DNA from: a virus
Strand: one strand, 5' to 3'
IMG/VR virus record: IMGVR_UViG_3300024581_003789
Coordinates: 1-59,664 of that record
Length of the DNA stretch: 59,664 bases
A model generated the notes under the pieces. The model was not told the origin of the DNA and ran no database searches. It worked only from the letters and a program-made list of their open reading frames with translations. The position numbers and the translations under genes were made by a program. Position 1 is the first letter of the stretch; each line of letters starts with the position of its first letter. Shown here one piece after another: positions 2,631-26,644 of this stretch.

Positions 2631-2684
2631 TTTTACTTCAAAAAACTTACAAAATATTATTATAGTGATACAGGAGAACAATAT

Positions 2685-4625
2685 ATGGCACGCAATAAAA
2701 AAGACTTTTTAAAGCTCATTAAAGAGCAGAGAAAATCTAAAAGCAAAGAAAAATTTAGTGGTACTTTTATTGACTACTTGGAATTGGTAAAAGACAATCC
2801 AGGATCGGTAAAATTAGCCCATCGACGTCTATACGAAACTATTAATAATCGTGGCGTTGAAACGCTTGATGTTGGAAATGACGGATATCGTGATATTTTC
2901 AACGGAGACAAAATTAGAAAATATGATTACTTTGAAAAAGAATTCTTTGGTATGGAATCAGTAATCAATAAACTTATGAGATTTATGAAATCGGCAGCTT
3001 TTAAAGGTGAAGAAAGTCGCCAGGTTCTTCTCTTAATGGGTCCGGTAGGGGCAGGAAAATCAGCTCTTATTGATTCAGTTAAGCGTGCACTGGAAACTGC
3101 TGAAGACTATTACTACTTAGAAGGTTGCCCAGTGAGAGAAGAACCTCTTCATCTTTTACCTAGAAGTTTAAGAGGTGAATTTGAAGAGCTTTTGGGTGTA
3201 CATATTGAAGGTGATCTTTGTCCAGTATGTCGTCATCGATTAATGACAGAATTTGAAGGTGAATACGAAAAATTCCCAGTAAAGCAAACCGGTTTTTCTC
3301 AGCGAGGCCGAAGAGGTATCGCAGTAGTGCCACCTATGGACGCAAACTCTCAAGACGTATCAGTTTTGATTGGTACTGAAGATATTTCAAAACTAGATCT
3401 TTATCCTGAAGATGACCCACGTGTTTTGTCACTTAATGGTGCGTTTAACGTTGGTAATCGCGGTATCGTTGAGTTTGTTGAGGTATTTAAGAATGAGATT
3501 GAATTCTTACATACAATGTTAACAGCAACGCAAGAGAAACGTGTGCCTACCCCAGGTAAAAACGATATGCTTTATTTTGACGGGGTGATATTATCCCATT
3601 GTAATGAGTCAGAGTGGAACAGATTTAAATCTGAACACACTAACGAGGCTATTCTGGACAGGGTATTGAAGATTGAAGTTCCTTATGTTTTAGAATTGGA
3701 TCAAGAACAAAAGATTTACGAAAAAATTATTGGAAGATCTGACTTCCGAGGTGCACATATCGCCCCTCATACATTAAAGGTAGCATCAATGTTCTCAGTT
3801 ATGTCGCGTTTGCAAAACTCTAGAAAGTGTGACTTATTGACGAAGATGAAAATCTACAATGGTGAAGCCATTATTGAAAAAGGTCGAGTTAAGAAAGTAG
3901 ATATTCGTGACTTGAAAGCTGAAGCTAAACATGAAGGAATGGAAGGTATTTCTACTCGTTTCATTATGAAAGCTTTGGATGCAGCATTGTCAGACTCAGA
4001 TGACGGTATGATTACTCCAATCAATGTTGTTGATTCTTTGATTAAGCAAGTAAAAGAGCAAATTATTGACGAAGATGCTCAAACACGATATTTGGAAATT
4101 TTGCAAAAAATTATTCGAGAAGAGTACTTACGAATTCTTGAAACAGAAATTGCCAAAGCATTTATCACTGCTTATGAAGAACAAGCACAATCTTTGTTTG
4201 ATTCCTACTTGGATAATGCTGAATGTTATACAACTAATTCAAAAGTTAAAAACAGAATCACACGCGAAGAAACAGAACCAGATGAAAAATTCATGAGAAC
4301 AATTGAAGAAATGATTGGTGTTGTTGGTTCATCTCGTGATGGATTTAGAAATGATGTTACTGCATTTATGTTTGCAAAACTCCGTAAAGGCGAAACAGTC
4401 GATTATAAGTCTTACGGTCCTTTGAAGGAAGCAATCGAGCAATACTTGATTTCATCAGTTAAAGATATCGCAAGAATCGTAACTCGATCTAAGTCTCGTG
4501 ATGATGATCAGCGACGTAAATATTCAGATATGATTCAAACTTTAATTGAAGAATACGGTTATAATGAAGCTTCAGCTGAGGAGATCTTAACATATGCAAG
4601 CAACAATTTGTGGCGTGACTCCTAA
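2685..4625 (+). CDS. prkA: PrkA/YeaG family AAA+ serine protein kinase
   Basis: FFGME, Walker A LLLMGPVGAGKS, GCPVREEPLHL, IEGDLCPVCR, GNRGIVEFVEVFK, NEAILDR, HIAPHTL, EGMEGISTRF; AGGAG RBS. Confidence 0.95.
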   Translation: MARNKKDFLKLIKEQRKSKSKEKFSGTFIDYLELVKDNPGSVKLAHRRLYETINNRGVETLDVGNDGYRDIFNGDKIRKYDYFEKEFFGMESVINKLMRFMKSAAFKGEESRQVLLLMGPVGAGKSALIDSVKRALETAEDYYYLEGCPVREEPLHLLPRSLRGEFEELLGVHIEGDLCPVCRHRLMTEFEGEYEKFPVKQTGFSQRGRRGIAVVPPMDANSQDVSVLIGTEDISKLDLYPEDDPRVLSLNGAFNVGNRGIVEFVEVFKNEIEFLHTMLTATQEKRVPTPGKNDMLYFDGVILSHCNESEWNRFKSEHTNEAILDRVLKIEVPYVLELDQEQKIYEKIIGRSDFRGAHIAPHTLKVASMFSVMSRLQNSRKCDLLTKMKIYNGEAIIEKGRVKKVDIRDLKAEAKHEGMEGISTRFIMKALDAALSDSDDGMITPINVVDSLIKQVKEQIIDEDAQTRYLEILQKIIREEYLRILETEIAKAFITAYEEQAQSLFDSYLDNAECYTTNSKVKNRITREETEPDEKFMRTIEEMIGVVGSSRDGFRNDVTAFMFAKLRKGETVDYKSYGPLKEAIEQYLISSVKDIARIVTRSKSRDDDQRRKYSDMIQTLIEEYGYNEASAEEILTYASNNLWRDS

Positions 4626-7298: not shown

Positions 7299-7326
7299 AT
7301 TATACTTTCCTCATTTGATATTTATG

Positions 7327-7355
7327 ATTATACATCGATATCTTAAAATTAACAA
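7327..7355 (-). promoter_or_regulatory. sigma70-like promoter for the sigma region-4 gene
   Basis: Minus strand TTGTTA-N17-TATAAT, about 30 nt upstream of the ATG at 7298. Confidence 0.6.
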
Positions 7356-7365
7356 AAGGATGATT

Positions 7366-8733
7366 ATGACAGATAGAAAAATATTTATTATCGACACAAG
7401 TGTTTTGTTGTACGATAAGAACTCAATCCACTCCTTTCCTGGAAATGACGTATTAATCCCTTTGGTTGTCTTAGATGAATTAGACAGATTCAAGGACAAA
7501 AAAGGTTTAATTGGCGAAAACGCAAGATACGTCAACAGGTTTTTAGATGATTTGAGAAAAGAAGGTACTTTGCATGACGGTATAGGTATCGATGGTGATC
7601 AAACAATCAAAGTTGCATTGACAGGATTTAACGAAGTACCTGCTGGATTAGATGCCAACTATGCTGACAACAAAATGATCTCTTTGGCTCTGGATGTACA
7701 GAAGAACTCAGATCAAAAGGTAACCTTAGTAACTAAGGACATTAACTTCAGAGTTAAGTGTGATTCTCTAGGAATACATTCTGAAGATTATTACAAAGAT
7801 AAATTAACAATAGCAGACGGAAAAACTTTTAAAGGTTATAGCGAAGTTGAAGCTTATGACCCGTTTATGATTGACTCTCTTTATGAATACGTTAAATCAC
7901 AAGAAAAAGACGGGGATGAAGAAAGGGAAACAGTTGAGTCGTTTTTAGCTTTGTTTGTTGAGCAACACAATCGTGATCCGTATGAAAACGAATATTTTTG
8001 CATTAAATACGAATCAAAATCATTTATTGGAAAGTACGAAGAAGGATCGATAGTAAGAGTTAGACAACCTCAAGACATGCTAGATACATTTGCACGTTTA
8101 GATATTAAGGCTAAGAATAGAGAACAACTTTATGCATTTAATGCTTTACTAGACCCATCAATGCCTTTGGTTACTATTTCTGGATTAGCCGGTAGTGGAA
8201 AAACTTTTATTGCTTTGATGGCGGCTTATTCTCTTGTTCAAGCTGGATATTATGATAGAATTGTTTTTACAAGAAATGTTCAACCTGTAGGCCGTGACAT
8301 TGGTTTCTTGCCTGGAACTGCAGAAGAAAAGATGGCACCGTGGATTGCACCAATCATGGACAACTTAAGAGTAGGACTAAAAGACAGTAATCTATCCCTA
8401 TTCAATACTTTGATGTCGCAAGGAGTTATTGAAATTGCACCGCTGTCTTATATTCGTGGAAGAACCTTTAATGACAGTATACTTATCATGGACGAAGCAC
8501 AAAATGCAACAATACATGAATTGAAAACTGTGATTACGCGAATGGGAGAAAATTCAAAAATTATTCTTCTTGGTGATGTTGATCAGATCGATACACCTTA
8601 CATTGATGCGTTGTCTAACGGTTTGACAATTGTTGCTGAAAAATTCAAAAATCAAGAATGTGCTTCACACATTGCACTTAAGAGGGGAGAAAGATCTCAT
8701 TTGAGTGCGGTGGCAGCTTCAATCTTAGGATAA
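7366..8733 (+). CDS. phoH: PIN-PhoH fusion (PhoH2/YlaK type)
   Basis: PIN: IIDTSVLL, VVLDELD, ADNKMI, LVTKDINFRVK. PhoH: GLAGSGKT, IGFLPG, YIRGRTF, MDEAQN, GDVDQID. Start moved to ATG 7366 after AAGGA. Confidence 0.92.
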   Translation: MTDRKIFIIDTSVLLYDKNSIHSFPGNDVLIPLVVLDELDRFKDKKGLIGENARYVNRFLDDLRKEGTLHDGIGIDGDQTIKVALTGFNEVPAGLDANYADNKMISLALDVQKNSDQKVTLVTKDINFRVKCDSLGIHSEDYYKDKLTIADGKTFKGYSEVEAYDPFMIDSLYEYVKSQEKDGDEERETVESFLALFVEQHNRDPYENEYFCIKYESKSFIGKYEEGSIVRVRQPQDMLDTFARLDIKAKNREQLYAFNALLDPSMPLVTISGLAGSGKTFIALMAAYSLVQAGYYDRIVFTRNVQPVGRDIGFLPGTAEEKMAPWIAPIMDNLRVGLKDSNLSLFNTLMSQGVIEIAPLSYIRGRTFNDSILIMDEAQNATIHELKTVITRMGENSKIILLGDVDQIDTPYIDALSNGLTIVAEKFKNQECASHIALKRGERSHLSAVAASILG

Positions 8734-9065: not shown

Positions 9066-10217
9066 ATGGCATCAATTTTTAGAGCATCAAACGCAGAACT
9101 AACAGGAAGTTTGACAGAGCTGGCAAATGGTGATCCTTATCTCTTGGCTGGATCTGGTATTGACATTACAACCGGGTCAAACGGGCAAGTAACAATTGCA
9201 GCAACTGGAGGTGGTTCTGGAACAATAACTGAAGTTATTGCAGGATCAGGTCTAACTGGAGGCGGAACAACAGGAGCTGTTACTCTTAATGTAGGTTCCG
9301 GAACAGGAATAACAGTCAATGCAGACAGCATTCAGACAAATGACAGTCAAATTGTTCATGACAGTCTATTAGGTTTTTTTCCTAATGAACACATTGACCA
9401 TTCTGCGGTTTCGATTAGCGCAGGATCAGGTCTAACTGGAGGCGGAGATATAACTGCAAATAGAACGCTAAACGTTGATGGCACATTAATACCTTTTTTA
9501 GGAAATGCAAATACTTTTACGAAAATAAACACTTTTCAATCTGATGTAACAGTTGATGGTGCTAATGTTGTATTGCAAGTTTCTGATTCCAATTTAAATT
9601 TTTACTCCAATCCAACTTCTGGATTGACTTTGATTGGCGAGACTGAAGGTACTTTACTCTCATCTCCTGGGAATGCAAGCGATGTAAGAATACTTCTTTC
9701 AGGTTCAGCAGGCTCAAAAGATGGAGCGACTAGAGGTGTAACTTTGGTCACTGGTGATCTTGTTGTTAGTGGATCTGTATACGGAAACACATTGATAGAG
9801 AGAGGACTTTTTCAAAATCCAACGCTGTCTGGCGCAGGTTCATTTTTTCCTCCAGACGATTCAATTAATGAAGGAGGGGCAAATAATTTAAACTTTTATC
9901 TTGCTGATTCTAAAATAATTGTTGAAAAAGTAAAGATAAGATTTAACTCGTATACTGCTGGTGGCGCGCCAGTCGATAATTTAACTCTATCGTTGCATGT
10001 TGGATCCAACGGAGACGTTACTGTTAGTGGGACTGCACAAGATACAAGCAGCATAGATTCTGCAAGCTTCGCAACGAATACAATTCATACTTTCGAGTTT
10101 ACCGGAAACAATATTGTTGAAGAAGATCAAATTTGGACAATATCAATAAAAAGTACGACAGGCATTATTATGTCATCTACAAATGTGCACTTTTTAATAT
10201 ATTATAGAAGAATTTAA
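9066..10217 (+). CDS. Tail/head fibre-like structural protein
   Basis: Gly/Thr/Ser-rich; repeated AGSGLTGGG..(VT/RT)LNV units; ANTFTKINTF fibre motif. Confidence 0.7.
   Translation: MASIFRASNAELTGSLTELANGDPYLLAGSGIDITTGSNGQVTIAATGGGSGTITEVIAGSGLTGGGTTGAVTLNVGSGTGITVNADSIQTNDSQIVHDSLLGFFPNEHIDHSAVSISAGSGLTGGGDITANRTLNVDGTLIPFLGNANTFTKINTFQSDVTVDGANVVLQVSDSNLNFYSNPTSGLTLIGETEGTLLSSPGNASDVRILLSGSAGSKDGATRGVTLVTGDLVVSGSVYGNTLIERGLFQNPTLSGAGSFFPPDDSINEGGANNLNFYLADSKIIVEKVKIRFNSYTAGGAPVDNLTLSLHVGSNGDVTVSGTAQDTSSIDSASFATNTIHTFEFTGNNIVEEDQIWTISIKSTTGIIMSSTNVHFLIYYRRI
9240..9446 (+). repeat. Exact 27-bp direct repeat GCAGGATCAGGTCTAACTGGAGGCGGA (9240-9266 and 9420-9446)
   Basis: Read directly; both copies encode AGSGLTGGG and lie 180 bp apart. 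Confidence 0.9.
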
Positions 10218-10281: not shown

Positions 10282-12183
10282 ATGACCAATTTCCAAGATG
10301 CAGACGTTGTTTTTGTTGCTGATTTATTTATAAACGAATATGGCGGAGGAGCCGAAAGATCAACAGAGGCTTTATTTGAAACCGCAACTTATAAAACAGT
10401 TAAAGTAAAATCATCTGAAGTTACACAAGAGTTGTTGCAACAAGGAATTGCAAAACATTGGGTATTTTTTAATTATCGCGGAATGGATCACAACTTAATC
10501 CCTCTTATTGTTGGAAGCCTTTACTATTCTGTCGTTGAATACGACTATAAGTTTTGCTCGTATCGATCCATGGATCTTCATAAGCGAGAAACAGGAGGAG
10601 ATTGTGATTGTCATGAGTCAAATCTTGGAAAGTTAATCTCAGCCTTTCTTCATGGTTCTGAGCACATTTTTTGGATGTCACAAAAGCAGGCAGAAATATA
10701 CCATGAAAGATTTCCGTTTCTTAAAGAACACAAGCAAACAATACTTAGTTCTATTTTTAGTTTAAAAGACATAGAATTCATGGATCAGCTTTACAAAAAC
10801 AAGTCTGAGGAAAATAACGGAAAATGGGCTGTTATTGACGGTAACAGCTGGATTAAAGGTGTAGTAGAGAGCAAAAAGGTTGTAACAGATTATCTCAGAG
10901 GAGAAGCAGAAGTCCTTTCAAATCTTCCTTATTATGATTTATTAAGAAGATTAACAGAGTTCAAAGGATTGTCATTTCATCCACTTGGCGCTGATACGTG
11001 CCCAAGAACTGTAATTGAGGCGAGACTTTTAGGATTAGAACTCTCAATTGGTACAAATGTTCAGCACTATTACGAAGACTGGTTTCAAAATACTAGAGAA
11101 GATGTCGAAGATTATCTGTTGTCTAGACATTCAGCTTTTTGGGATGTTATCGAATCGTTTTTCAATCGAGAAATTACAGTTAGCGGTTATACAACAACAC
11201 ACAACGTCGTGGACGCAGATTACCCGTGGGAAGCTTCTGTTTCTTCGCTATTGGGTTTTTGCAATGAAGTTGTTGTAGTTGACGGAGGATCATCTGACGG
11301 AACGTGGGATAAACTCCAAGCTTGGGCTAAAGAAGAACCAAAACTAAAAATTAAGCAAATTAAAAGAAACTGGGATTCTGAAAGGTTTGCTCTATTCGAC
11401 TTCCAACAAAAAGCCGAGGCCCGTAAACTTTGCACATCTGACTGGTGCTGGCAAATGGATATCGATGAAATTGTTCATGAAAACGACTATGATAAAGTCC
11501 GGAATCTTATTAGAAACTTACCTAAAGCTTCTAAAGTTATTTGCTTGCCTGTAGTTGACTTTTGGGGGAATCAAGATAAAGTTAGACTGGATGTGCATCC
11601 ATGGAAGTGGCGATTGAGTCGAAACTATGATTATATTACTCATGACTTGCCCAAAGAGCATCGTGCCTTTGACGAAAAAGGCAGACTTTACTCAAAAGGA
11701 TCTGATGGCTGTGATTATGTCAACTCTGAGACTTTTGAATATATTCCAAATATTAATTTTTACACAAGAGAGATTGATGCTTTTAGACAGCGTCTTCTAG
11801 TTGATAGTGAATTCAGAGGAGATAATTTAGAAAAGTATGAAGACTTTATTAATTCTTCGCTAGAACAGCTGCCTTCTGTTTATCACTATTCTTGGTTTGA
11901 TATTAAAAGAAAAATATACAATTATCGTGACTTCTGGTCAAAGTTTCATGCAAGTCTTTACAATAGAAAAGTAGAAGACAATGCTGAAAACAATAAGTTT
12001 TTTGACAAGCCATGGTCAGAAGTAAGTGAAAAAGAAATTGTAAATATGGCAGAAAAATTGAATAATAGTATGGGAGGCTGGATATTTCACTCTAGAGTAG
12101 ATTTTACGAAACCCACGCCTTGGTATTTTATTAAACGCGACCATCCAGCACTAATTAAGCCATGGTTGGAAAAGAGGAGATAA
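10282..12183 (+). CDS. Two-domain glycosyltransferase (GT-B/GT4-like N-terminus, GT2 C-terminus)
   Basis: GGAERS and DTCPRTVIEARLLG (GT-B type); EVVVVDGGSSDGT and WQMDIDE (GT-A DxD). Confidence 0.8.
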   Translation: MTNFQDADVVFVADLFINEYGGGAERSTEALFETATYKTVKVKSSEVTQELLQQGIAKHWVFFNYRGMDHNLIPLIVGSLYYSVVEYDYKFCSYRSMDLHKRETGGDCDCHESNLGKLISAFLHGSEHIFWMSQKQAEIYHERFPFLKEHKQTILSSIFSLKDIEFMDQLYKNKSEENNGKWAVIDGNSWIKGVVESKKVVTDYLRGEAEVLSNLPYYDLLRRLTEFKGLSFHPLGADTCPRTVIEARLLGLELSIGTNVQHYYEDWFQNTREDVEDYLLSRHSAFWDVIESFFNREITVSGYTTTHNVVDADYPWEASVSSLLGFCNEVVVVDGGSSDGTWDKLQAWAKEEPKLKIKQIKRNWDSERFALFDFQQKAEARKLCTSDWCWQMDIDEIVHENDYDKVRNLIRNLPKASKVICLPVVDFWGNQDKVRLDVHPWKWRLSRNYDYITHDLPKEHRAFDEKGRLYSKGSDGCDYVNSETFEYIPNINFYTREIDAFRQRLLVDSEFRGDNLEKYEDFINSSLEQLPSVYHYSWFDIKRKIYNYRDFWSKFHASLYNRKVEDNAENNKFFDKPWSEVSEKEIVNMAEKLNNSMGGWIFHSRVDFTKPTPWYFIKRDHPALIKPWLEKRR

Positions 12184-12185
12184 AA

Positions 12186-12491
12186 ATGAATAACACGGAA
12201 AATCTATTCCAATTATTCTCTCAAGTCTTTATTGAAAGTCAACAAGCATTCAGTAAATGTGATGTAGAATTAAGATCTAAATGTAGAACTCTTGCAGAAA
12301 CACTAAATAAGCTAGCAGGTGATCTGGAAGCTGATCCCTTCCAGGCAAATTTAGCAGTTGTAAATTTAATCGAAGACGAAGTCAACAAGATATCTAAAGC
12401 AGCTTCAGAGCTTGACTCAAGACGAGAATTCATCAAGGAATCTGTAAATTCACTTCAAAAATCAACAAAAGTAATGATAGGGAAAAGCTAA
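12186..12491 (+). CDS. Hypothetical coiled-coil protein
   Basis: GAGGAG RBS before ATG 12186; heptad-like helix. Confidence 0.6.
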   Translation: MNNTENLFQLFSQVFIESQQAFSKCDVELRSKCRTLAETLNKLAGDLEADPFQANLAVVNLIEDEVNKISKAASELDSRREFIKESVNSLQKSTKVMIGKS

Positions 12492-12835
12492 TGAAAATTG
12501 TAGAAAAACCATGGGGCTACGAAGAAATATGGGCAAAAACTGACAATTATGTAGCAAAAAGGCTAGTAATTAATTCCGGTCATAGGCTCAGTCTTCAATA
12601 TCACGAAAAAAAAGAAGAGACAATATATGTTTCCAGTGGGTGTCTAAGAATTTGGGAAAGTGAAAATGATGACGAATACAAAGATTATACAGCAGGGTCT
12701 GTTTATCACGTAATTCCAGGTAAAATTCATAGATTCGGAGCACCAGCTGGTGCATGTGATAAGACTATTTTAATGGAAGTTAGCACCGTAGAAATAGATG
12801 ATGTTATACGTATCAAGGATGATTACCAAAGATGA
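12491..12835 (+). CDS. Cupin (mannose-6-phosphate isomerase type II-like)
   Basis: VEKPWGYEEIW, RLSLQYHEKKEETIYV, IHRFGA, LMEVST..DDVIRIKDDYQR. Confidence 0.85.
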   Translation: MKIVEKPWGYEEIWAKTDNYVAKRLVINSGHRLSLQYHEKKEETIYVSSGCLRIWESENDDEYKDYTAGSVYHVIPGKIHRFGAPAGACDKTILMEVSTVEIDDVIRIKDDYQR

Positions 12836-13593
12836 ATTTGCATGTAATATCAACAAACTACAACTCTTTAAACTTTTGCGTAAACAATATAAACTCAATA
12901 GCTTCGCAAACATTTAAACCAGCATCTCATGTTTTTATTGACGAGTCTGATGATGAAAACACAAGAAATATTTTAAAACAAGTAAAAAATAGTGATTTTT
13001 ATAATCAAGCTCATGAATTGTATGGGTTAGAAATTATTTTAAAAGAAAGCAGAAGCTTTAAAATTAAAAACTTGCTTGATCAAATAAACAAACCTCTTTA
13101 TGATGACAATGACATAATATGTATTGTTGACGGAGACGACTGGTTAAGTAATAATTATGTACTTAAGACTATTTATGATAGCTATAACCACAATAGTTAT
13201 GACTATCTATATACAAATTGGGTATACTCTAACGCTAACTTACTTGGATGTTCTAAAAAAATACCTGACAACAATTGGGATCCTTACAAGGACAGCTGGA
13301 TAACTAGTCACATGAGTACGTTTAAGGTAAGTTGTTTCCGAAACATAAACCCAGAAAACTTTTTAGACGAAAATAAAAATTGGTTTGAAATGGGTTGTGA
13401 TCAAGCCTACATTCTCCCTATTCTTTACAATTCTAAAGAAAATCATGGCAGTTATGATCGTGTTGGTCATATAGACTTTCCTTGTTATGTCTATCAGCAC
13501 TCGGAAAACCCACTTAGAAAACGAGATGGTGTGCTTGGAAAAAAAGCACATGATGCCGTAAGCATTATTAGAAAAAGAGGATATATAAAATGA
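12832..13593 (+). CDS. GT2-family glycosyltransferase
   Basis: SIASQT, FIDE, ICIVDGDDWL, SHMSTFK, CDQAYILP. Confidence 0.8.
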   Translation: MNLHVISTNYNSLNFCVNNINSIASQTFKPASHVFIDESDDENTRNILKQVKNSDFYNQAHELYGLEIILKESRSFKIKNLLDQINKPLYDDNDIICIVDGDDWLSNNYVLKTIYDSYNHNSYDYLYTNWVYSNANLLGCSKKIPDNNWDPYKDSWITSHMSTFKVSCFRNINPENFLDENKNWFEMGCDQAYILPILYNSKENHGSYDRVGHIDFPCYVYQHSENPLRKRDGVLGKKAHDAVSIIRKRGYIK

Positions 13594-14987
13594 AATTAGA
13601 AAAAGTAACTATAATTATGCCTACATTTAAAAGAAATGATTATCTTTCCAGAGCAGATCATCCATCTTTAAATATTGCAAAAGAAAGTTTTGTTGACAAA
13701 CTTTTGATTGTTTGGCAAAATATAGGAGAAAAAGTTCCTGAAAACGTTATTACAAACTTAGAAAGTATTTGTCCGGGTAAGTATGAAATAGTTTTTCCGG
13801 AAAAGAATTCTTTAAATAATAGATTTAAACCTTTCGATCAAATTAAGACAAGTTTGGTGATGAACTTAGACGATGATTATAACGTAACAAAGGAGTCAGT
13901 TATTTCAATGATAGAGATTATGATGAAAAACAATGACAACTTTGTAGGAAGCGTTCCTAGAAACATATACACAGACGAAAAGGGAGAGTTTAAGTATGAA
14001 TATTCTCCAGAATTCAATAATGAAAGTTATAACTTTCTTCTAACAGGATATTCAATGTTTCATAAGAAATATCTAAATATATATCATAGCAAGAAAGATG
14101 AAATGGAAATGGTAGACAGTCTATTTAATAGCGAGGACATTCTCTTCAATCACGTGTATGAAAAATATTCTACCACAGGAGAAAAATTCTTAGTATCTGA
14201 TATAAATGTTAAAACTTGGCAGTATGAAAAAGGAAGATCAATATCAGATCGATCTGATCATCTACTAAATAGACAAAAAATGTGTTCATTTTTAAAAACA
14301 AAAGGCTATTCTCTCCCTGCCAAGTCGAACAGAAGAGTCTCGCTTAACAATAAAAGAATCAAAATAAAAAATGCCTATTGGATCAACTTAGAAAAATCAA
14401 AGGACAGAAGAGAAAACTTTGAACGAGAAGTAATTAGCACTCTAAAGGAAAGAATCAACTTTTTCCGCTTTCCTGCTGTTGATTTGACTGCTGAGTCATA
14501 CATTGGAAGAAGATCTGCTGGTTGCTCTTTTTCACACTTGAGCTGCTGGAACCACGCAATCAATTCTGGAGAAGAATACGTAATTATTTTTGAAGATGAT
14601 TTTAAACCAATATGTGACCCTGGAGTTTTTAGTAAAACAATTGACGATTTAGTTGATAATCACCCGGGATTTCTTTTGTGTAACATAGCATACAATCAAA
14701 TTAAAGATCCAAGAGACGTTCATCTTCACACAGGTTTTAAAAATTTTCACAATATCCAGACGACTTCTGGTTATATTGTGAAAACAGAATTTCTTAAGCA
14801 ATTATATCCCTACGTATTGCAAGGCGCTATGAATCTTTTATTGGGCGGACAAACTAATCAAAATGCAATCGACGTTGTTTGGAAAATGTTCCAAGGGTCT
14901 GATCGTTGGCTTTGTTCTAAGAAGCTAGGTGTTCAGAGAGAATCTTTTTCTGAAATTGAAAAAAGAATTGTCAAGTATGAGGTTTGA
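13590..14987 (+). CDS. Exostosin-like GT64 domain fused to a GT25 domain
   Basis: N-terminal TFKR, KLLIVWQN, NSLNNRFKPFDQIKTSLVMNLDDD, VGSVPR, YNFLLTG..FHKKYL, NSEDILFN, R..C (GT64); C-terminal YWINLEKSKDRR, RFPAVD, GCSFSH..CW, IIFEDD, TTSGYIV (GT25). Confidence 0.82.
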   Translation: MKLEKVTIIMPTFKRNDYLSRADHPSLNIAKESFVDKLLIVWQNIGEKVPENVITNLESICPGKYEIVFPEKNSLNNRFKPFDQIKTSLVMNLDDDYNVTKESVISMIEIMMKNNDNFVGSVPRNIYTDEKGEFKYEYSPEFNNESYNFLLTGYSMFHKKYLNIYHSKKDEMEMVDSLFNSEDILFNHVYEKYSTTGEKFLVSDINVKTWQYEKGRSISDRSDHLLNRQKMCSFLKTKGYSLPAKSNRRVSLNNKRIKIKNAYWINLEKSKDRRENFEREVISTLKERINFFRFPAVDLTAESYIGRRSAGCSFSHLSCWNHAINSGEEYVIIFEDDFKPICDPGVFSKTIDDLVDNHPGFLLCNIAYNQIKDPRDVHLHTGFKNFHNIQTTSGYIVKTEFLKQLYPYVLQGAMNLLLGGQTNQNAIDVVWKMFQGSDRWLCSKKLGVQRESFSEIEKRIVKYEV

Positions 14988-15628
14988 TTATTATGCCTGT
15001 TGACTTTCAAAATCGATTAATTTTTATACACGTTCCAAAGAATGGAGGTACAGCTATATCTAACACTCTAGGCATGAAACTTTTAGGTCATCATGATATT
15101 AAATTTTATAAAAATAGATTAGCAAATTTTTCTGATTTTAAAACATTAGCAGTATCTAGAAGTCCTTATGACAGGATAATATCTTGTTATGAATATGCAA
15201 AAATGGATGAAAGTTACTGGCATTCTTCTCTAAATAGTAATAAATCAATTTATGGAAAACATCCAGACTTTGAAGTTTGTAAAAAGAATAAACTTGAGGA
15301 ATTAGTTTTTAAAAATTTTGTCAGTAAAGAAATTAACTTGTTACACCCGGGATGGAAAAGTCAGCACACATATTATTGTGACAAAAACTTTAATTTAATT
15401 GTTAATGAGTTAATAGACTTCGACTACTTAAACGAATGGTTCCTTAAAAACTATAATGTAAAAATAAAAAAAATTAATGCTTCAAAAAGAAAAAAAAGAA
15501 AAATAGATGAAAATCTTTTTTGCAATCTTTACGGTGAAGAATGTTGCAAAATAGTAAAAGAAGTTTATGAAAAAGATATTGAAATATTTAAAAAATTAAA
15601 AGGTAAATTTAACGGGGGTGTATTTTGA
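14984..15628 (+). CDS. Sulfotransferase (Sulfotransfer_2-like)
   Basis: FIHVPKNGGTAI (5'-PSB loop), RSPYDRIISCYEY (3'-PB), YEKDIEIF. Start is TTG 14984 or ATG 14993. Confidence 0.85.
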   Translation: MIIMPVDFQNRLIFIHVPKNGGTAISNTLGMKLLGHHDIKFYKNRLANFSDFKTLAVSRSPYDRIISCYEYAKMDESYWHSSLNSNKSIYGKHPDFEVCKKNKLEELVFKNFVSKEINLLHPGWKSQHTYYCDKNFNLIVNELIDFDYLNEWFLKNYNVKIKKINASKRKKRKIDENLFCNLYGEECCKIVKEVYEKDIEIFKKLKGKFNGGVF

Positions 15629-16134
15629 GTAAAAGGAAGTGTATAATTGATCTAGTAAGCGAAGATAGTGTTGTTGTTGAAGTAGGAGTATGGAAAGGTG
15701 AATTTTCTAACCTTTTATATAATAAAAAACCGAAAGAAATGATATTGATTGACCCGTGGGAGTCTTTTCCTGATTTGACCGGTCGGTGGTATAGCACTAC
15801 TCAAAAAGAAATGGACCAAATATACAACCAAGTAAAAAATAGATTTTCACAATGTAAAAATGTAAAAATAATAAGAGACTTTTCTTTGAATGTAATTCTT
15901 GACAGCAAAGCTGACTTGGTCTATATTGACGGTAATCACTCTTATGAAAGCGTCAAAAAAGACTTAAGTCACTGGTGGCCACAGATCAACACCGGTGGCT
16001 ACATGACAGGTGACGATTTCAATTGGTCAGACAAGCATTGTAAAATAGGGCCTAAAAAAGCAATCGAGGAATTTTGCAAAGAAAAAAATGTAAAGATAAG
16101 GGTTGAAAATAATCAGTGGATAATTAAAAAGTAA
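15625..16134 (+). CDS. Class I SAM-dependent methyltransferase (Methyltransf_24-like)
   Basis: VEVGVWKGEFS, LIDPW, DLVYIDGNHSYESVKKDL, GGYMTGDDF. Confidence 0.85.
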   Translation: MSKRKCIIDLVSEDSVVVEVGVWKGEFSNLLYNKKPKEMILIDPWESFPDLTGRWYSTTQKEMDQIYNQVKNRFSQCKNVKIIRDFSLNVILDSKADLVYIDGNHSYESVKKDLSHWWPQINTGGYMTGDDFNWSDKHCKIGPKKAIEEFCKEKNVKIRVENNQWIIKK

Positions 16135-16149
16135 AGTAATTAAATTATT

Positions 16150-16178
16150 TTGTATTGTTTGATCTGTCTAGTTAGAAT
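16150..16178 (+). promoter_or_regulatory. sigma70-like promoter upstream of the PD-(D/E)XK nuclease gene
   Basis: TTGTAT-N17-TAGAAT in the intergenic gap. Confidence 0.5.
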
Positions 16179-16204
16179 ATAAAATAAAAAAGCAAGGATA
16201 GCTC

Positions 16205-17053
16205 ATGACAAACTTAGAAGACATTAAATTCCCTAACGGGAAACCTCACGTTTCTTTCTCAGAAATTAAAACTTGGAAAGAGTGTAGTTACAGACATAAA
16301 TTAACGCACATTGACAAAATTGACACATTCCAAGACAGCCCATATCTTCACTTTGGAACAGCTGTTCACGAAGGTTGCGAGAACCTATTAGAAGGACGTG
16401 ATATCGACCGTGATAAAATACTAGGGGTCATGAAAGAAAGCTGGGAGAAAGCTGGATTTGAGAACGAGGAGTGGTATTCTAAACAGCCCGGATGGTACAA
16501 ACACGAACCTGTGGAAACATGGGAACAGTGGGCTAACAATATGTGGAATGAGGTTAACGACTTCTTAGATAAAGAATTTCCGGGATGGGAGTGCTTTAAG
16601 GCAGAGGAAGAGCTATACGAGCCAATCGAAGATCTAGACTCTCCTCTCTACTTCAAGGGATTTGTCGACGGAATTCTTAAAGTTCCCAAAAAACGAGGAA
16701 AGGGTCACGAATACTGGATTATTGACTGGAAAACAGCAGGTGCCTATGGCTGGCGTCGTGATAAAAAACAAGACCTAGGAATGACAGCACAGTTAATCCT
16801 TTATAAACACTTTTGGGCAAAGAAGCACGGAATTGATCTTAAAGATGTGCGTTGTGCATTTATTCTTCTAAAGAGAGGTGCTAAGCCTGGAAAGGTGTGC
16901 GACATTGTAAAAGTTTCAGTCGGTCCTAAAACCTATGAGAAGGGTATGAAGCTTATGAGAAGCATGATCAAAACTGTTCGAAGAGGTTTGTTTCTTAAAA
17001 ATAGAGATAGCTGTAAATTCTGTCCATTTTTAGACACAGAACACTGTAAATAG
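16205..17053 (+). CDS. PD-(D/E)XK exonuclease, AddB/Cas4-like, with probable Fe-S cysteines
   Basis: HVSFSEIKTWKECSY, FGTAVHE, FKGFVDG, IIDWKT, QLILY, CKFCPF....C. Confidence 0.85.
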   Translation: MTNLEDIKFPNGKPHVSFSEIKTWKECSYRHKLTHIDKIDTFQDSPYLHFGTAVHEGCENLLEGRDIDRDKILGVMKESWEKAGFENEEWYSKQPGWYKHEPVETWEQWANNMWNEVNDFLDKEFPGWECFKAEEELYEPIEDLDSPLYFKGFVDGILKVPKKRGKGHEYWIIDWKTAGAYGWRRDKKQDLGMTAQLILYKHFWAKKHGIDLKDVRCAFILLKRGAKPGKVCDIVKVSVGPKTYEKGMKLMRSMIKTVRRGLFLKNRDSCKFCPFLDTEHCK

Positions 17054-17108
17054 TTTACTTTTATCATTCTAGATATAGTATTGTTCATATAACAAGAGGA
17101 AAAATCTT

Positions 17109-18359
17109 ATGACTGAAGACGGTAAATTTAAAGTTGTTGTTCTATCTGACCATGCACTTTCCACTAGCGGGGTAGGAACTCAAAGTCGACACTTAATCGA
17201 AGGCCTTCTTAAAAAAGGAAATTGGTCTTTTAGACAGTTCGGAGCTGCAGTTAAGCATGCAGATTATCGCACGGTTGTAGTTAACGAAGACTTTATCATT
17301 AAACCTATTGATGGGTTCGGTAGCCCTGAATTAATTCGTGTTACGCTAGCAACAGAAAAACCTGATGTGCTTTTTATTTTTACGGATCCAAGGTTTTTTA
17401 CTTGGCTCTTTGAAATTGAAGATGAAGTGCGTCAAATCTGCCCTATTGTTTGGTGGCACGTTTGGGACAACTACCCATACCCAACATTCAATGACAAATA
17501 TTACCAAGCAACTGATTTAATCAATTGTCATAGTCACATGACTTATACAATGCTTAAAGAAAAGTATCCAGAAAAAACCAATTTTATTCCGCATGCTCTG
17601 CCCAGTTCAATGTTTTCTAGGTTAGAAAAAACAGAAATTTCTAACTTTAAGAAGTCTCTTCTTGGTGAAGACAGAGAAGATCACTTCGTAGGTATTTGGG
17701 TCAATAGGAATGCTAAGAGAAAAAGACCGTCAGATCTTTTAGCAGCATGGAAAGAGTTTTTAGATAATTTAGAACAGAAAGAAGGGCATAGAAAAGGAAC
17801 TCTGATTATGCATACAGAACCCTTGGATGGTGAAGGGCCGAATCTATTTAAAGTTGCTGAAATGTTAGAAATTCAAGACAATGTTTTCTTTTCTAGAGAC
17901 CGTTTAGAATTTGATAAAATGAACGTTCTCTACAATATTAGCGACTTTTGCATCAATACGTCCTATGCTGAAGGATTTGGCTTGGCAACACTTGAGGCAA
18001 TGATGACCGGAACGCCTATTATTGCGCCTAAAACAGGTGGTCTAACAAGACAGGTCGTTGATCACAGAGACGGGACAGAAAATGGCGTTGCATGTGAAGT
18101 TGAACTTAAAACACTCGTAGGTAGTCAATCAGTTCCCTACATTTACGAAGACTATACTTCAACAAAGACTTTTGCCGAAGCAATGATGAAATTATATCAA
18201 ATGCCTGATCAAGAAAAAACTAAGCTTTCTAAAAAAGTTTGGGATTATGCACATGAAGAATTTTCTTTGCAGAAGACAGTTGACATGTGGAATGATACAA
18301 TGATAGAAACAATTAATAAATTTAAAAATATGGATAAATGGAGTATTGAAGAAGTATGA
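17109..18359 (+). CDS. GT4-family glycosyltransferase
   Basis: SGVGTQ, IPHAL, VNRNAKRKR, LYNISD..INTSYAEGFGLATLEAMMTGTPII. Confidence 0.88.
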   Translation: MTEDGKFKVVVLSDHALSTSGVGTQSRHLIEGLLKKGNWSFRQFGAAVKHADYRTVVVNEDFIIKPIDGFGSPELIRVTLATEKPDVLFIFTDPRFFTWLFEIEDEVRQICPIVWWHVWDNYPYPTFNDKYYQATDLINCHSHMTYTMLKEKYPEKTNFIPHALPSSMFSRLEKTEISNFKKSLLGEDREDHFVGIWVNRNAKRKRPSDLLAAWKEFLDNLEQKEGHRKGTLIMHTEPLDGEGPNLFKVAEMLEIQDNVFFSRDRLEFDKMNVLYNISDFCINTSYAEGFGLATLEAMMTGTPIIAPKTGGLTRQVVDHRDGTENGVACEVELKTLVGSQSVPYIYEDYTSTKTFAEAMMKLYQMPDQEKTKLSKKVWDYAHEEFSLQKTVDMWNDTMIETINKFKNMDKWSIEEV

Positions 18360-19543
18360 CAACAAAAGTATTATTGAGAGCACCACTATTAACTAATAGT
18401 GGTTATGGCGTTCATTCTAGGCAAGTATTCTCTTGGTTGTATCACAGGGAAGATGTAGAATTAACAGTAGAATGTCTTAATTGGGGTCGAACTTCTTGGG
18501 TTCTCGATGGAGATAAAGAAAACGGTCTTTATAGAAAAATCATGTCATGTTCAAACCCAGTGACTCCGGGATCATATGACGTTTCTTTTCAAGTAATTCT
18601 TCCTGATGAGTGGAATACAGAATACGCAACTAAGAATGTAGGTGTCACGGCGCTTGTAGAAACTGATCGATGTACTGCAAGGTGGGTTGAAAAATGCAAC
18701 AAAATGGACGTAGTTGTCTTACCCTCACAGTTCACACTGGATGTTCTTAAGAGATCAGGCCCCGTAACAACAGAAACTCTAGTTATTCCAGAGTGGTTTA
18801 ACGGAGATCTTCTAGATAGAAGCAAGATGTCAAAAACGCAATCAGATAAAAGATACGACACTATTAAGACTGACTTCAATGTTTTGACAATTGGTGCCTT
18901 AACTAGCCTTAAAAAAGAAGATGATAGAAAGAATACTGAAAACACTTTAAAGTGGCTTTTTGAAGAATTTTCTGACGAAGAAGACGTTGGTGTTGTTATT
19001 AAAACAACTATGGGTAAAGGTAGTGAATCAGATAAACAGCTATGTAGAGACTATTTAAAATCAGCAGTTAACAATTATCGCAAAGGAGAATTTCCTAAAG
19101 TGTATTTAATTCATGGCAACATGGACAAAGAAGAAGTTGCTGGATTAGTTTCGCATAGAAAAATTAAACTTTATGCAACAGCAACTAGAGGGGAAGGATA
19201 TGGGTTACCATTGGTCGAAGCTGCAGCCGCTGGAGTACCAATTGTAGCAACTGGTTGGTCAGGACACTTGCAATTCTTGCAGAAAGAAAATTTTGGTGTT
19301 GTTGACTATGATTTAGTAGAAATTAGCGAAACAAAAGTTGATGAAAGAATCTTCAAAAAAGGTTTTAAGTGGGCAGAACCGTCTGAAGAAAGCTTTAAAA
19401 GAGAAGTGAGAAAAGCTTTTGAAAACTATGAAGACGCAAAAGCCAAAGCAAAAAATCTTAAAAAACACATTCAGTTTAATTATAACAGTGCAATCATCAA
19501 GAAACAATACGACAAACTATTAGAAAAGGTACTTGAAAAATGA
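18356..19543 (+). CDS. GT4-family glycosyltransferase
   Basis: APLLTNSGYGVHSR, DRKN, TRGEGYGLPLVEAAAAGVPIVATGWSGH, WAEP. Confidence 0.88.
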   Translation: MTTKVLLRAPLLTNSGYGVHSRQVFSWLYHREDVELTVECLNWGRTSWVLDGDKENGLYRKIMSCSNPVTPGSYDVSFQVILPDEWNTEYATKNVGVTALVETDRCTARWVEKCNKMDVVVLPSQFTLDVLKRSGPVTTETLVIPEWFNGDLLDRSKMSKTQSDKRYDTIKTDFNVLTIGALTSLKKEDDRKNTENTLKWLFEEFSDEEDVGVVIKTTMGKGSESDKQLCRDYLKSAVNNYRKGEFPKVYLIHGNMDKEEVAGLVSHRKIKLYATATRGEGYGLPLVEAAAAGVPIVATGWSGHLQFLQKENFGVVDYDLVEISETKVDERIFKKGFKWAEPSEESFKREVRKAFENYEDAKAKAKNLKKHIQFNYNSAIIKKQYDKLLEKVLEK

Positions 19544-19863
19544 CAAGCTTAAGCATACTTATGATTTTGTGTTGTCTGTTGTTTTTGCTTTCATGTTTTT
19601 TGGCTTGGAAGCTATATAAGTTTTCTTTGATAATAATTGATATGGAAGATGCTATTGATGATTCGCTTAGTATTTTGGATGAGAGATATAGGAGTATGTA
19701 CGAAGTACTGCAAAAACCTATATTCTTCGATTCAATCGAAGTACGGCAAGTTATCGCTGACATTAAAGAATGTCACCGGGCAATACTTATTATTGCTAAT
19801 AGCTTGACAAGACAAACAAGGGAACTAGAAGACAATGGCGAAACTACGAAAGAAGACAGTTAA
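19540..19863 (+). CDS. Hypothetical membrane-anchored protein
   Basis: N-terminal hydrophobic helix followed by coiled coil. Confidence 0.65.
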   Translation: MTSLSILMILCCLLFLLSCFLAWKLYKFSLIIIDMEDAIDDSLSILDERYRSMYEVLQKPIFFDSIEVRQVIADIKECHRAILIIANSLTRQTRELEDNGETTKEDS

Positions 19864-25130: not shown

Positions 25131-26644
25131 TGCATAGAGTATTAACGTCTTCAAAAGACACTTATATAACTAATAAAATTATTAATAATTCTTTTAGAGC
25201 ACTAAACGCAAATGTAGGTAGTGCTGGAACTTTAGACTTGTTTAAACTGTATAGCGAAAATTCAGTCCCAGGTGAAAGTGACCCAATTGAACTATCACGT
25301 CTTTTGATTAAATTTCCAATTGAAGAATTATCACGAATGGATGATCTTGGTTTAATTGACATTACTGATCCTAGTTTTAAATGTTATCTTAAACTTCATG
25401 ACGTTTACGGAGGGCAAACAACTCCTAGAAATTTCAAAGCTATTGTTTTTCCTTTGGCACAGGAATTCACAGAAGGGACAGGCTTGAATGTTGTATCATT
25501 TACAGACTTAGATGCTACAAATTATATGACAGCGTCAATCCAGAACGGTACTGCTGTATTATGGAATGAACCGGGAGCCATGGCCTCTGGAAGTTTAGGT
25601 GATTCGAATATTGATGTCATTGTTAGTGGATCACTATCAGGTACAAATACTTCTCTTTGTGTTGAACAACTTTTTGTAACAGGCGAAGAAGATCTAAATG
25701 TTGACATCACAACAATTGTATCAGGGACAGTTTCAAATCAAATTCCTAATCATGGATTTTTGATTGGTCTATCAGGAAGTTATGAAAATAATGACAAGTC
25801 ATACTTTGTAAAGCGTTTTGCATCAAGAAACGTTCAGGTTGCTTCACTAAGACCCAAACTTAGTGTTCATTTTGATGACAGTATGCAAGACAGTCACACA
25901 GACATGATTTTTAACGTGACAGGTGCTCTGTATTTAAGAAACTATCATCAAGGAAACTTAGAGAATATTCTGTCCGGTTCTTCAGCTTCTGAATTGTCTG
26001 GAGAGAACTGCATGATTTTAAAAATCGAGTCAGGAGACTTTAAAAAGACATTTAACGTGTCACAGGCAATGAGAGGAAGACATAGAATTCCAGGTGTATA
26101 TTCATCATCTTTTGCCATTTCTAGTTTTGACCCACTTTTATACGATGAAGTTAATGCATCCGGATCGATTACATTTAACGAAATATGGACCAACCCGGAA
26201 GAAACTGTGACATATCTTTCTTCCTCGATAGAAGTTAAAAGAGAATCAAGAAGAAAGTCAAATACGCAAAACCAAAACAACCTCTTAGTAACTGTATTAA
26301 ATGTCAATGAAGAATACAGACAAGGGGAGATTGTCAATATTCGAGTTTTTGCTGAAGCTCGCGATAGAGCAATTGTATATGCGCGTTCTCCGATTGAAAA
26401 GAAGAGTCAAATATTTAAAGAGATGTACTATAGAGTAAGAGATGTCAATGACGGAGAAGTAATTATTGACTTTGACAAGGTTAATCATTCAACTAAACTA
26501 TCGACAGATGAAGACGGTATGTTTTTTATATTTTTTACAGACTCTTTGGTGAAAGGTAGAACTTATACGTTTGATTTTCTCATTAGAAGAAACGGAGCTG
26601 ACACAGTAATCAAGGACGCAACATCTAAATTCAGGATTGTATAA
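25130..26644 (+). CDS. Virion structural protein with DNRLRE/CBM-like N-terminal domain
   Basis: SSKDTYI...NVG...SRLLIKF...LKL...W...NHGFLI...F.SR...RPKL pattern; baseplate context. Confidence 0.6.
   Translation: MHRVLTSSKDTYITNKIINNSFRALNANVGSAGTLDLFKLYSENSVPGESDPIELSRLLIKFPIEELSRMDDLGLIDITDPSFKCYLKLHDVYGGQTTPRNFKAIVFPLAQEFTEGTGLNVVSFTDLDATNYMTASIQNGTAVLWNEPGAMASGSLGDSNIDVIVSGSLSGTNTSLCVEQLFVTGEEDLNVDITTIVSGTVSNQIPNHGFLIGLSGSYENNDKSYFVKRFASRNVQVASLRPKLSVHFDDSMQDSHTDMIFNVTGALYLRNYHQGNLENILSGSSASELSGENCMILKIESGDFKKTFNVSQAMRGRHRIPGVYSSSFAISSFDPLLYDEVNASGSITFNEIWTNPEETVTYLSSSIEVKRESRRKSNTQNQNNLLVTVLNVNEEYRQGEIVNIRVFAEARDRAIVYARSPIEKKSQIFKEMYYRVRDVNDGEVIIDFDKVNHSTKLSTDEDGMFFIFFTDSLVKGRTYTFDFLIRRNGADTVIKDATSKFRIV

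Follow-up and report, generated by a model that had tools for sequence, protein, structure and literature searches.

A GT64-GT25 fusion glycosyltransferase in the glycan island of a large uncultured tailed phage

The window considered here is a stretch of 59,664 nucleotides that makes up the first 59.7 kb of a linear 134-kb virus record (IMG/VR IMGVR_UViG_3300024581_003789; CheckV completeness ~46%). At positions 13590-14987 of its + strand lies the gene of P0001, a 465-residue fusion glycosyltransferase (GT) in which a GT64 domain (nt 13608-14297) is followed by a basic linker and a GT25 domain (~nt 14364-14984). The gene is part of a 9-kb glycan island (10282-19543) that also encodes two GT2 and two GT4 enzymes, a cupin, a sulfotransferase, a methyltransferase, a PD-(D/E)XK protein and a small helical protein, and that is bounded by a variable fibre-like gene and by baseplate genes. 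The source is a large uncultured myovirus-like tailed phage. Baseplate genes in the record bear out the assumption of a phage that was made in a preliminary description of this DNA, and the nearest deposited relatives of its baseplate wedge/J-type proteins belong to an uncultured 484-kb phage, to Microcystis phage Mel-JY01 and to Flavobacterium phages. Gene orientation across the window is almost entirely +.

The N-terminal domain of P0001 is a GT64 domain, as the preliminary description had proposed on the strength of a row of signature letters, all of which (NSLNNRF, IKT, LDDD, VG..PR, LLTG, FHKKYL and NSEDI) are present. The Pfam profile Glyco_transf_64 (PF09258) matches residues 7-236 over profile positions 2-225 of 245, at an E-value of 2.5e-31 and 109.3 bits against a cut-off of 21.3. 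The generic GT2 profile reaches 20.5 bits, which is under its own cut-off; the domain is not an ordinary GT2. Its best solved relative is mouse EXTL2 (CAZy GT64; PDB 1OMX/1ON6/1ON8), which aligns over the entire catalytic domain at 7.3e-22 and ~30% identity, and the next solved matches are the GT64 domains of EXT2, EXTL3 and EXT1. Residues R15, N73, N77, D94-D96 (the DXD motif), R124, N180, D183, H224 and R228 are invariant in P0001 and eight metagenomic relatives. D94-D96, D183, H224, R228, R15 and N73 align with EXTL2 D151-D153, D246, H289, R293, R76 and N130 (EXTL2 numbering is that of the 1omx chain with an offset of +37). These EXTL2 positions we take to be uridine diphosphate (UDP)- and Mn-binding and catalytic-site residues; their numbering and roles reportedly go back to Pedersen et al. 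2003. The ESM Atlas model of residues 1-250 superimposes on models of EXTL2-type clusters with a TM-score of 0.89, a comparison of predicted with predicted models only. GT64 enzymes are retaining and yield alpha-linked products; GT25 enzymes are inverting and yield beta-linked products.

P0001 begins only 6 residues ahead of the catalytic core, its highest 19-residue hydropathy is 0.74, and it has neither a transmembrane helix nor a type II anchor. The likeness to EXTL2 and to the GT64 domains of EXT1, EXT2 and EXTL3 thus covers the catalytic domain, the DXD motif, the D246/H289/R293 equivalents and the predicted fold. In contrast to the EXT/EXTL proteins, P0001 lacks a membrane anchor and stem, and should hence be cytoplasmic and not Golgi-lumenal; it has a GT25 partner in place of GT47, and it is encoded by a tailed phage. 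The plant GINT1 and GMT1 enzymes, which are glycosyl inositol phosphorylceramide (GIPC) HexN(Ac)/Man transferases, belong to the same Pfam family, and the first named match of a word-based search with P0001 is a GINT1-like protein of a plant. Unlike P0001, GINT1 and GMT1 carry a membrane anchor, and their substrates are sphingolipids; the genome of the window has no GINT1_N domain.

The C-terminal domain is a GT25 domain, again as first suggested. Pfam Glyco_transf_25 (PF01755) matches at 2.4e-8 (34.5 bits against a cut-off of 24), stand-alone PF01755 relatives of 195-233 residues align at 1e-15 to 2e-17 across 95% of the domain, and an acidic E-D-D motif is invariant in the alignment. An AlphaFold2 model of the domain (pLDDT 80.4) has as its best Protein Data Bank matches human COLGALT1/GLT25D1 (PDB 9EVJ), bacterial GT25 beta-1,4-galactosyltransferases (PDB 8XC8/8XKD) and mimivirus R655 (PDB 9CRZ), with E-values of 3e-9 to 8e-8 and TMq of 0.55-0.66 at 14-18% sequence identity; the chlorovirus PBCV-1 protein A064R (PDB 2P6W) is also among the fold matches. 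An action on collagen-like repeats, of the kind that COLGALT1 performs, was considered and rejected: no open reading frame contains a G-X-Y run of 5 or more. The GT25 members known to us transfer beta-Gal or beta-Glc, and we know of none with glucuronic acid (GlcA) transferase activity.

The fusion itself is conserved. A 96%-identical protein of 465 residues is encoded, in identical synteny, on three contigs of other samples, and a 52%-identical protein of 467 residues (that of the P0006 phage) lies on a 169-kb contig between the same flanks; the DXD and EDD motifs are kept in both. Recurrence of the same 465-467-residue architecture on four further contigs from other samples argues that the fusion is not an artefact of assembly. 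A HMMER search with the GT64 domain against 1.84 billion representative sequences returns only 818 proteins at E<=1e-3. Among the 150 matches listed, only P0005 has the same size of 465 residues, and the other named long proteins among the matches listed are eukaryotic exostosin-type proteins that carry GT64 at their C-terminus. Placement of GT25 behind GT64 is therefore found, among the matches listed, only in this phage clade, and sets P0001 apart from known GT25 proteins.

The gene directly 3' of the fusion (14993-15628, + strand; 211 residues) begins 5 nt past the fusion stop and encodes a sulfotransferase of the 3'-phosphoadenosine 5'-phosphosulfate (PAPS) type, a member of Sulfotransfer_2, in agreement with what had been read from the letters. 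The assignment draws on Pfam PF03567, phrog_3347, sequence motifs and a family profile. Taken alone the protein is marginal (23.7 bits against a PF03567 cut-off of 22), and a six-frame search of the genome with PF03567 gives no match to it at E<=0.01. All 6 of the 6 members of its family match PF03567, the best at 9.4e-17, and two motifs are invariant among them: PKNxGT (P15, K16, G19, T20) and RxPxxRxxS (R56, P58, R61, S64), which are presumably the 5'-phosphosulfate-binding loop of PKxGxT type and the 3'-phosphate-binding motif, respectively. An Atlas model (pLDDT 0.78) resembles Sulfotransfer_2 clusters at TM-scores of 0.75-0.77, and the nearest Atlas clusters consist of short viral sulfotransferases of Uroviricota and Nucleocytoviricota. 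Searches of the Protein Data Bank with the sequence and with the family profile match no solved sulfotransferase at E<=10 and return chance matches only. Translation probably starts at the ATG at 14993 and not at the overlapping TTG at 14984, since a GAGG precedes the former and relatives begin with MP. Sulfotransfer_2 is a Pfam family that also includes the heparan sulfate (HS) 2-O and 6-O sulfotransferases.

Next follows a gene (15625-16134, + strand; 169 residues, start codon uncertain) for an S-adenosylmethionine (SAM)-dependent methyltransferase of the sugar O-methyltransferase type (Methyltransf_24/TylF/CmcI-like). Its Pfam matches are Methyltransf_24 (1.2e-14), TylF (2e-5) and RMNT_CmcI (0.0024), and its PHROG match is phrog_2675, which is labelled 'DNA methyltransferase'. 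The recurrent neighbour of phage-type GT64 is a methyltransferase and not a sulfotransferase. A SAM methyltransferase gene lies 3' of the GT64 gene in four of five phage-type contexts, directly so in three (the 52% relative, L009:5441-6115 and L010:10753-11340) and one gene later in the window. Sulfotransferase and GT64 are only loosely coupled: in the 52% relative the sulfotransferase gene lies 3 kb downstream of the fusion, beyond methyltransferase, GT11 and other genes, and the nearest outside relatives of the sulfotransferase (40-42% identity) belong to a glycan island on another phage contig, L015 (236 kb), with no GT64 within 10 kb. Another relative is found on a 6.8-kb contig together with GT2, GT7 and Methyltransf_21.

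The L015 island (L015:5872-18196 of the 236-kb ENA contig) is a separate observation. This 12-kb glycan island of another large phage, which ends at PhoH, contains GT2, a stand-alone GT25 followed by a Sulfotransfer_2 gene, GT10, Methyltransf_24, a second Sulfotransfer_2 (the one 42% identical to that of the window), a Sulfotransfer_1-like gene and three short-chain dehydrogenase/reductase (SDR) epimerase/dehydratase genes (GDP-mannose dehydratase-like). Two or three sulfotransferases in one phage island look worth separate attention. GT25, Sulfotransfer_2 and Methyltransf_24 co-occur, accordingly, in at least two phage lineages. Inheritance of the three as one block from the L015 lineage was considered and rejected: the sulfotransferases are 42% identical, and the GT25 parts align over only 80 residues at 33%, a distant relationship that speaks for co-occurrence and not for block inheritance.

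The remaining genes of the island are also on the + strand and are packed in an operon-like manner, with several stop/start pairs overlapping by 4 nt. The first (10282-12183) encodes a 633-residue protein without a transmembrane helix and conserved in all relatives, whose GT2 domain occupies residues ~327-470 (Pfam Glyco_tranf_2_4 3.6e-9, Glycos_transf_2 4.3e-7) and whose N-terminal half has no assigned function. It is followed by a 109-residue helical protein (12162-12491) with sub-threshold coiled-coil-type Pfam matches only, present in the relatives L006-L008 and absent from the gene list of the P0006 phage, and by a 114-residue cupin (12491-12835) like the C-terminal domain of type II mannose-6-phosphate isomerase/ManC (Pfam MannoseP_isomer 2.4e-9; C-terminal part of TIGR01479 2.6e-10). 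The 253-residue GT2 enzyme just upstream of the fusion (12832-13593; Glycos_transf_2 4.2e-7) has 4-nt overlaps at both ends, its stop overlapping the fusion start. Searches of Pfam and NCBIfam yield no specific family assignment for the two GT2 proteins, and none of the fusion, sulfotransferase and methyltransferase proteins has a specific match in NCBIfam. The gene of a PD-(D/E)XK nuclease-family protein (16205-17053; PDDEXK_1 4.4e-20) separates the tailoring enzymes from the GT4 enzymes; it occupies this place in all relatives and is 98.9% identical in L006, and that it has a role in glycan synthesis is doubtful. The two GT4 enzymes comprise 416 residues (17109-18359; GT-B fold; Glycos_transf_1 4.2e-14, GT4-conflict 1.2e-7) and 395 residues (18356-19543; GT4-conflict 9.7e-11, Glycos_transf_1 8e-7). 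The gene after them (19540-19863) encodes a 107-residue protein with one N-terminal hydrophobic helix (Kyte-Doolittle 19-residue maximum of 2.87 at residue 4), which is the only membrane-type protein adjoining the island; no island enzyme has a membrane-spanning hydrophobic segment.

Directly 5' of the island, a 383-residue protein (9066-10217, + strand; no Pfam family) appears to be fibre- or receptor-binding-like, because its N-terminus is kept in relatives and the remainder is swapped, a modular exchange typical of fibres: only the N-terminal 137 residues are conserved (55%) in L006, and total lengths are 383, 529 (L006) and 334 residues (the P0006 phage). The 3' side of the island is taken up by baseplate genes and by genes of very large proteins that contain ConA-like lectin domains. 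The island core may also be mobile. A 4.5-kb block (12,500-17,090) is 91-98% identical at the nucleotide level to L006:8900-13500, while both flanks are 60-80% identical, and the high-identity tract breaks at gene borders, with the cupin as its first gene and the PD-(D/E)XK protein as its last. This pattern points to recent exchange of the core, fusion included, between diverged phages, and suggests that the type of glycan is exchanged like a serotype cassette.

Further upstream, a PrkA/YeaH/SpoVR-type triad (143-4625; PHROG matches of 1e-84 to 3e-135, with PrkA sharing 32-34% identity with homologues in Thermus phage and huge phages) and a PIN-PhoH fusion (7315-8733) are syntenic in all relatives. 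Lys-tRNA ligase, named in PMC12619734 as a frequent gene of the published 'moraphage' lineage, was not found in the 134-kb record, which settles nothing on membership. The tripeptide [S/T]-G-S is over-represented genome-wide relative to composition (95 observed, 39.8 expected), mainly in the largest presumed structural proteins (17 against 2.8 at G000 118828-123642, 10 against 1.3 at 26644-30132 and 6 against 0.8 at 50562-52940). Local composition being uncontrolled, the excess could equally come from Gly/Ser-rich fibre loops.

The relationships of the phage GT64 domain were assessed in unrooted trees, a fasttree of 131 domains and an IQ-TREE (LG+C20 PMSF) of 65 domains, with support given as ultrafast bootstrap/SH-aLRT. 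The domain of P0001 and seven other short proteins without N-terminal extension form a clade (95/92 for the eight, 100/95 for seven), and this phage-type clade is sister to a group of GT64 from stramenopile-alveolate-rhizarian (SAR) protists (Plasmodiophora, the diatom Epithemia, an MMETSP protist transcript and metagenomic proteins with eukaryote-type neighbours), with joint support of 88/98. The phage domain therefore groups with SAR-protist enzymes and not with animal EXT/EXTL. Two lineages of the short clade lie on contigs with phage hallmark genes, and the contig of the member P0011 is that of a T4-like phage and has genes for RegA, tail tube and tail spike. The glycan island that includes P0010 also encodes GT11, a methyltransferase of TylF type and a GINT1_N protein that stands alone; P0009 adjoins a GT29 fragment. 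In the Atlas, two clusters of ~240-residue GT64 proteins (84 and 86 members) have known taxa that are mostly Uroviricota.

Elsewhere the phage-type enzyme is scarce. Among 30 matches looked up, every named protein is eukaryotic, and the GT64 family has no match in any of 14 model prokaryote genomes. Megablast and tblastn searches of 50,697 GenBank phage records with the region, the fusion, the GT64 domain and P0011 find nothing, even when matches up to E 0.1 are allowed, and the GT64 domain is matched by no PHROG family. A single-protein search of viral contigs finds only four short (31-residue) matches to a GT25 segment, and a search of viral and genome contigs with a four-sequence alignment finds pattern matches and no relatives. 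No description of a phage GT64 was found in searches of the literature on GT64, Glyco_transf_64 or exostosin in phages or viruses.

A shared origin of phage and protist GT64 is supported by the trees. The preliminary description had gone further and suggested a gene taken from eukaryotes or their viruses; the link is plausible, given the sister position to the SAR-protist clade, but the direction is not settled, the trees being unrooted and the GC content of the fusion gene being the same as that of the remainder of the phage (31-38%, with no local anomaly at the gene). The broad distribution of GT64 in eukaryotes favours transfer from a eukaryote, or a eukaryotic virus, to phage. As an observation apart, the glycan islands with phage-type GT64 also hold other families typical of eukaryotes, namely a TOD1/MUCI70-GT10 fusion (617 residues), GT11, a GT29 fragment and GINT1_N (L010:7432-9285; L009:1281-2084 and 7299-8135; L011:3197-3412). 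The stand-alone GINT1_N protein (1.1e-32) lies 2 kb from the GT64 gene on L009; in plants, GINT1_N is fused to GT64.

What such an island makes can be approached through systems of similar build. In chlorovirus capsid glycosylation, soluble multi-domain viral GTs and a methyltransferase glycosylate the capsid protein in the cytoplasm, without endoplasmic reticulum or Golgi (PMC9614988). PBCV-1 A064R, A111/114R and A075L, and the fibril clusters of giant viruses, resemble the island in combining virus-encoded soluble multi-domain GT-A enzymes with sugar methyltransferase. They differ in belonging to eukaryotic viruses and in using other GT families, and sulfation goes unmentioned in the review (0 occurrences in PMC9614988). 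In mycobacteriophages, GT genes stand beside structural genes and glycans are placed on capsid and tail proteins (Freeman et al. 2023, as cited in PMC12619734). As far as that account goes, their GT genes number one or two and a sulfotransferase is lacking; their hosts belong to a different phylum, and for the present island a virion target is a proposal.

The reading that we favour, at a probability of about 0.45, is that P0001 is a soluble bifunctional GT that helps to build a methylated, sulfated oligosaccharide, most likely on the phage's own virion proteins. Its GT64 domain would be an EXTL2-like retaining GT-A enzyme, dependent on metal and on the DXD motif, that adds an alpha-linked hexose or HexNAc from a nucleotide sugar, and its inverting GT-A GT25 domain would add beta-linked Gal or Glc, so that the fusion would attach two sugars in succession that are opposite in anomeric configuration. 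Up to four more sugars might come from the GT2 and GT4 enzymes at its sides, and the sulfotransferase and methyltransferase would cap hydroxyls; translation of the fusion would be coupled to that of the GT2 upstream and of the sulfotransferase and methyltransferase downstream. A short hetero-oligosaccharide would be assembled in the cytoplasm of the infected cell, directly on its acceptor, from UDP-sugars and PAPS of the host. Donor sugars, linkages, order of steps and acceptor are here proposals drawn from gene content. Direct assembly on a cytoplasmic acceptor is suggested because the enzymes are soluble and because no priming phosphoglycosyl transferase, flippase, polymerase, ligase or exporter turned up among the profile matches in the window. 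Host UDP-sugars and PAPS are invoked because the 134-kb record has no gene of nucleotide-sugar or PAPS synthesis (APS kinase, UDP-glucose dehydrogenase [UDPG_MGDP_dh_N] and SDR epimerase were looked for; APS is adenosine 5'-phosphosulfate). Virion proteins are favoured as acceptor because the island lies among genes of the adsorption apparatus and because chloroviruses, mimiviruses and mycobacteriophages offer precedents; the island GTs are soluble and sited with structural genes, as in those virus-encoded systems of virion glycosylation.

Several points weigh against virion decoration. The assignment of the acceptor is indirect. The record represents only ~46% of the genome, and the missing part may hold transporters, priming enzymes and sugar-nucleotide genes. 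The Pfam name of GT25 is 'LPS biosynthesis protein' (LPS, lipopolysaccharide), and a target in the host envelope is equally natural for that domain. The 52% relative carries sugar-nucleotide tailoring genes (DegT, epimerase/dehydratase, acetyltransferase) that would suit an O-antigen-type glycan as much as a virion glycan. Promoter-like sites of the sigma-70 type (55, against 50.5 in shuffled sequence) and terminator-like sites (10 against 7) are at chance level and lend no support to late timing or to operon borders, and inspection of the intergenic regions by eye reveals no clear shared late motif. The AlphaFold2 model of the sulfotransferase, made from six sequences, is poor (pLDDT 57.5).

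Some of these same facts make remodelling of the host envelope the main alternative, though a less probable one. The island would then alter a lipid-linked or lipid A-core intermediate at the cytoplasmic face of the membrane, and a host flippase would export the changed (sulfated, methylated) LPS, capsule or glycoprotein glycan; the outcome, in the same tentative measure, might be that superinfection is blocked or that progeny are kept from re-adsorbing to debris. In bacteria, GT25 enzymes transfer beta-Gal or beta-Glc in the LPS core (Pfam description; the family of PDB 8xc8), the island of the 52% relative with its DegT, epimerase/dehydratase, hexapeptide acetyltransferase and GT11 is like an O-antigen cluster, and soluble GTs are able to act on membrane-embedded lipid-linked acceptors without a transmembrane helix. 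Seroconversion by phage GTs is known, according to a review that PMC12619734 cites. On the other hand, the island is in the virion-morphogenesis region, near fibre and baseplate genes, and not in an early or moron region, and the window offers none of the priming, flipping, polymerising or ligating enzymes listed above. Seroconverting systems, to our knowledge, are also mostly those of temperate phages with membrane-bound GtrABC-type enzymes.

A more novel reading would make the fusion a true co-polymerase, alternating alpha-HexNAc with beta-Gal (or Glc) to give a repeating polymer that the sulfotransferase and methyltransferase decorate. P0001 does share with the co-polymerases of glycosaminoglycan (GAG) synthesis (EXT1/EXT2, GT47 with GT64; Pasteurella heparosan synthase, GT2 with GT45) the presence of two GT domains of opposite stereochemistry in one polypeptide. 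It differs from them in its GT25 partner; no GlcA transferase was identified, the record shows no supply of UDP-GlcA, and processivity is unsupported. We regard such a polymerase as improbable, and give the same low credence to its conceivable product, a sulfated GAG-like polysaccharide nearer to keratan or poly-N-acetyllactosamine than to heparan that would be made with an enzyme family also present in protists and would coat the virion or the infected cell.

The preliminary description had read GT64, GT25 and sulfotransferase together as a heparan-like, or more generally GAG-like, toolkit. Spelled out, this would have GT64 attach alpha-GlcNAc to GlcA, a further GT supply the GlcA units and the sulfotransferase act on the resulting chain. 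The closest solved structures are indeed those of EXTL2 and then of the EXT2, EXTL3 and EXT1 GT64 domains, the Pfam family of the sulfotransferase does take in the HS enzymes, and GAG co-polymerases usually are GTs with two domains. All characterised GT64 enzymes of which we know (EXT/EXTL, plant GINT1, GMT1) use a GlcA-terminated acceptor, and EXTL2 itself is an alpha-1,4-N-acetylhexosaminyltransferase. The toolkit nevertheless lacks support in its other parts. There is no GT47 in the 134-kb record and no GlcA transferase has been identified, the fused partner being a GT25; UDP-glucose dehydrogenase and APS kinase, and with them a supply of UDP-GlcA and PAPS, are absent from the record, although these could come from the host or from the half of the genome that is missing; and a general Pfam scan of the island yielded neither an N-deacetylase/N-sulfotransferase nor a C5-epimerase. 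The sulfotransferase shows no specific likeness to HS sulfotransferases (neither it nor its family profile matches a solved sulfotransferase, and its nearest relatives are short viral proteins), and its family recurs in phage islands without GT64 within 10 kb. The GT64 clade, for its part, sides with protists and not with animal EXT/EXTL. Even the name misleads, since chlorovirus A075L, annotated 'exostosin', proved to be a xylosyltransferase (PMC9614988). A heparan- or heparosan-like product is thus very unlikely.

Hypermodification of phage DNA bases against restriction, with the PD-(D/E)XK protein as part of the system, is the least credible reading: both GT4 proteins match the Pfam family 'GT4 in conflict systems', the methyltransferase matches a PHROG labelled DNA methyltransferase, a nuclease-family gene lies inside the island and DNA is a substrate of diverse phage GTs (Pyle et al. 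2024, as cited in PMC12619734), but the 134-kb record has no thymidylate-synthase-type hydroxymethylase, the Pfam matches of the methyltransferase are of sugar O-methyltransferase types (TylF, CmcI), GT64, GT25 and Sulfotransfer_2 have no known DNA substrates, and five to six GT domains are far above the number in known DNA-glycosylation systems.

GT64 has been treated as an essentially eukaryotic family, that of the exostosins and the plant GIPC transferases. Anchor-less GT64 enzymes are now placed in tailed phages, within a supported clade of short metagenomic proteins. A viral island for glycan decoration is of a known kind; what is new is a family not previously noted in phages and its lineage-specific fusion of GT64 with GT25. 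An 'exostosin-like' label, as this case cautions, should not be taken to mean 'heparan'. If the product does decorate virions, a phage particle would for the first time be seen to carry a sulfated glycan, and the virion glycosylation of giant viruses and mycobacteriophages would extend to aquatic jumbo-type phages. Such decoration may then bear on adsorption, on stickiness to marine and freshwater polysaccharide gels, and on escape from recognition by hosts or grazers.

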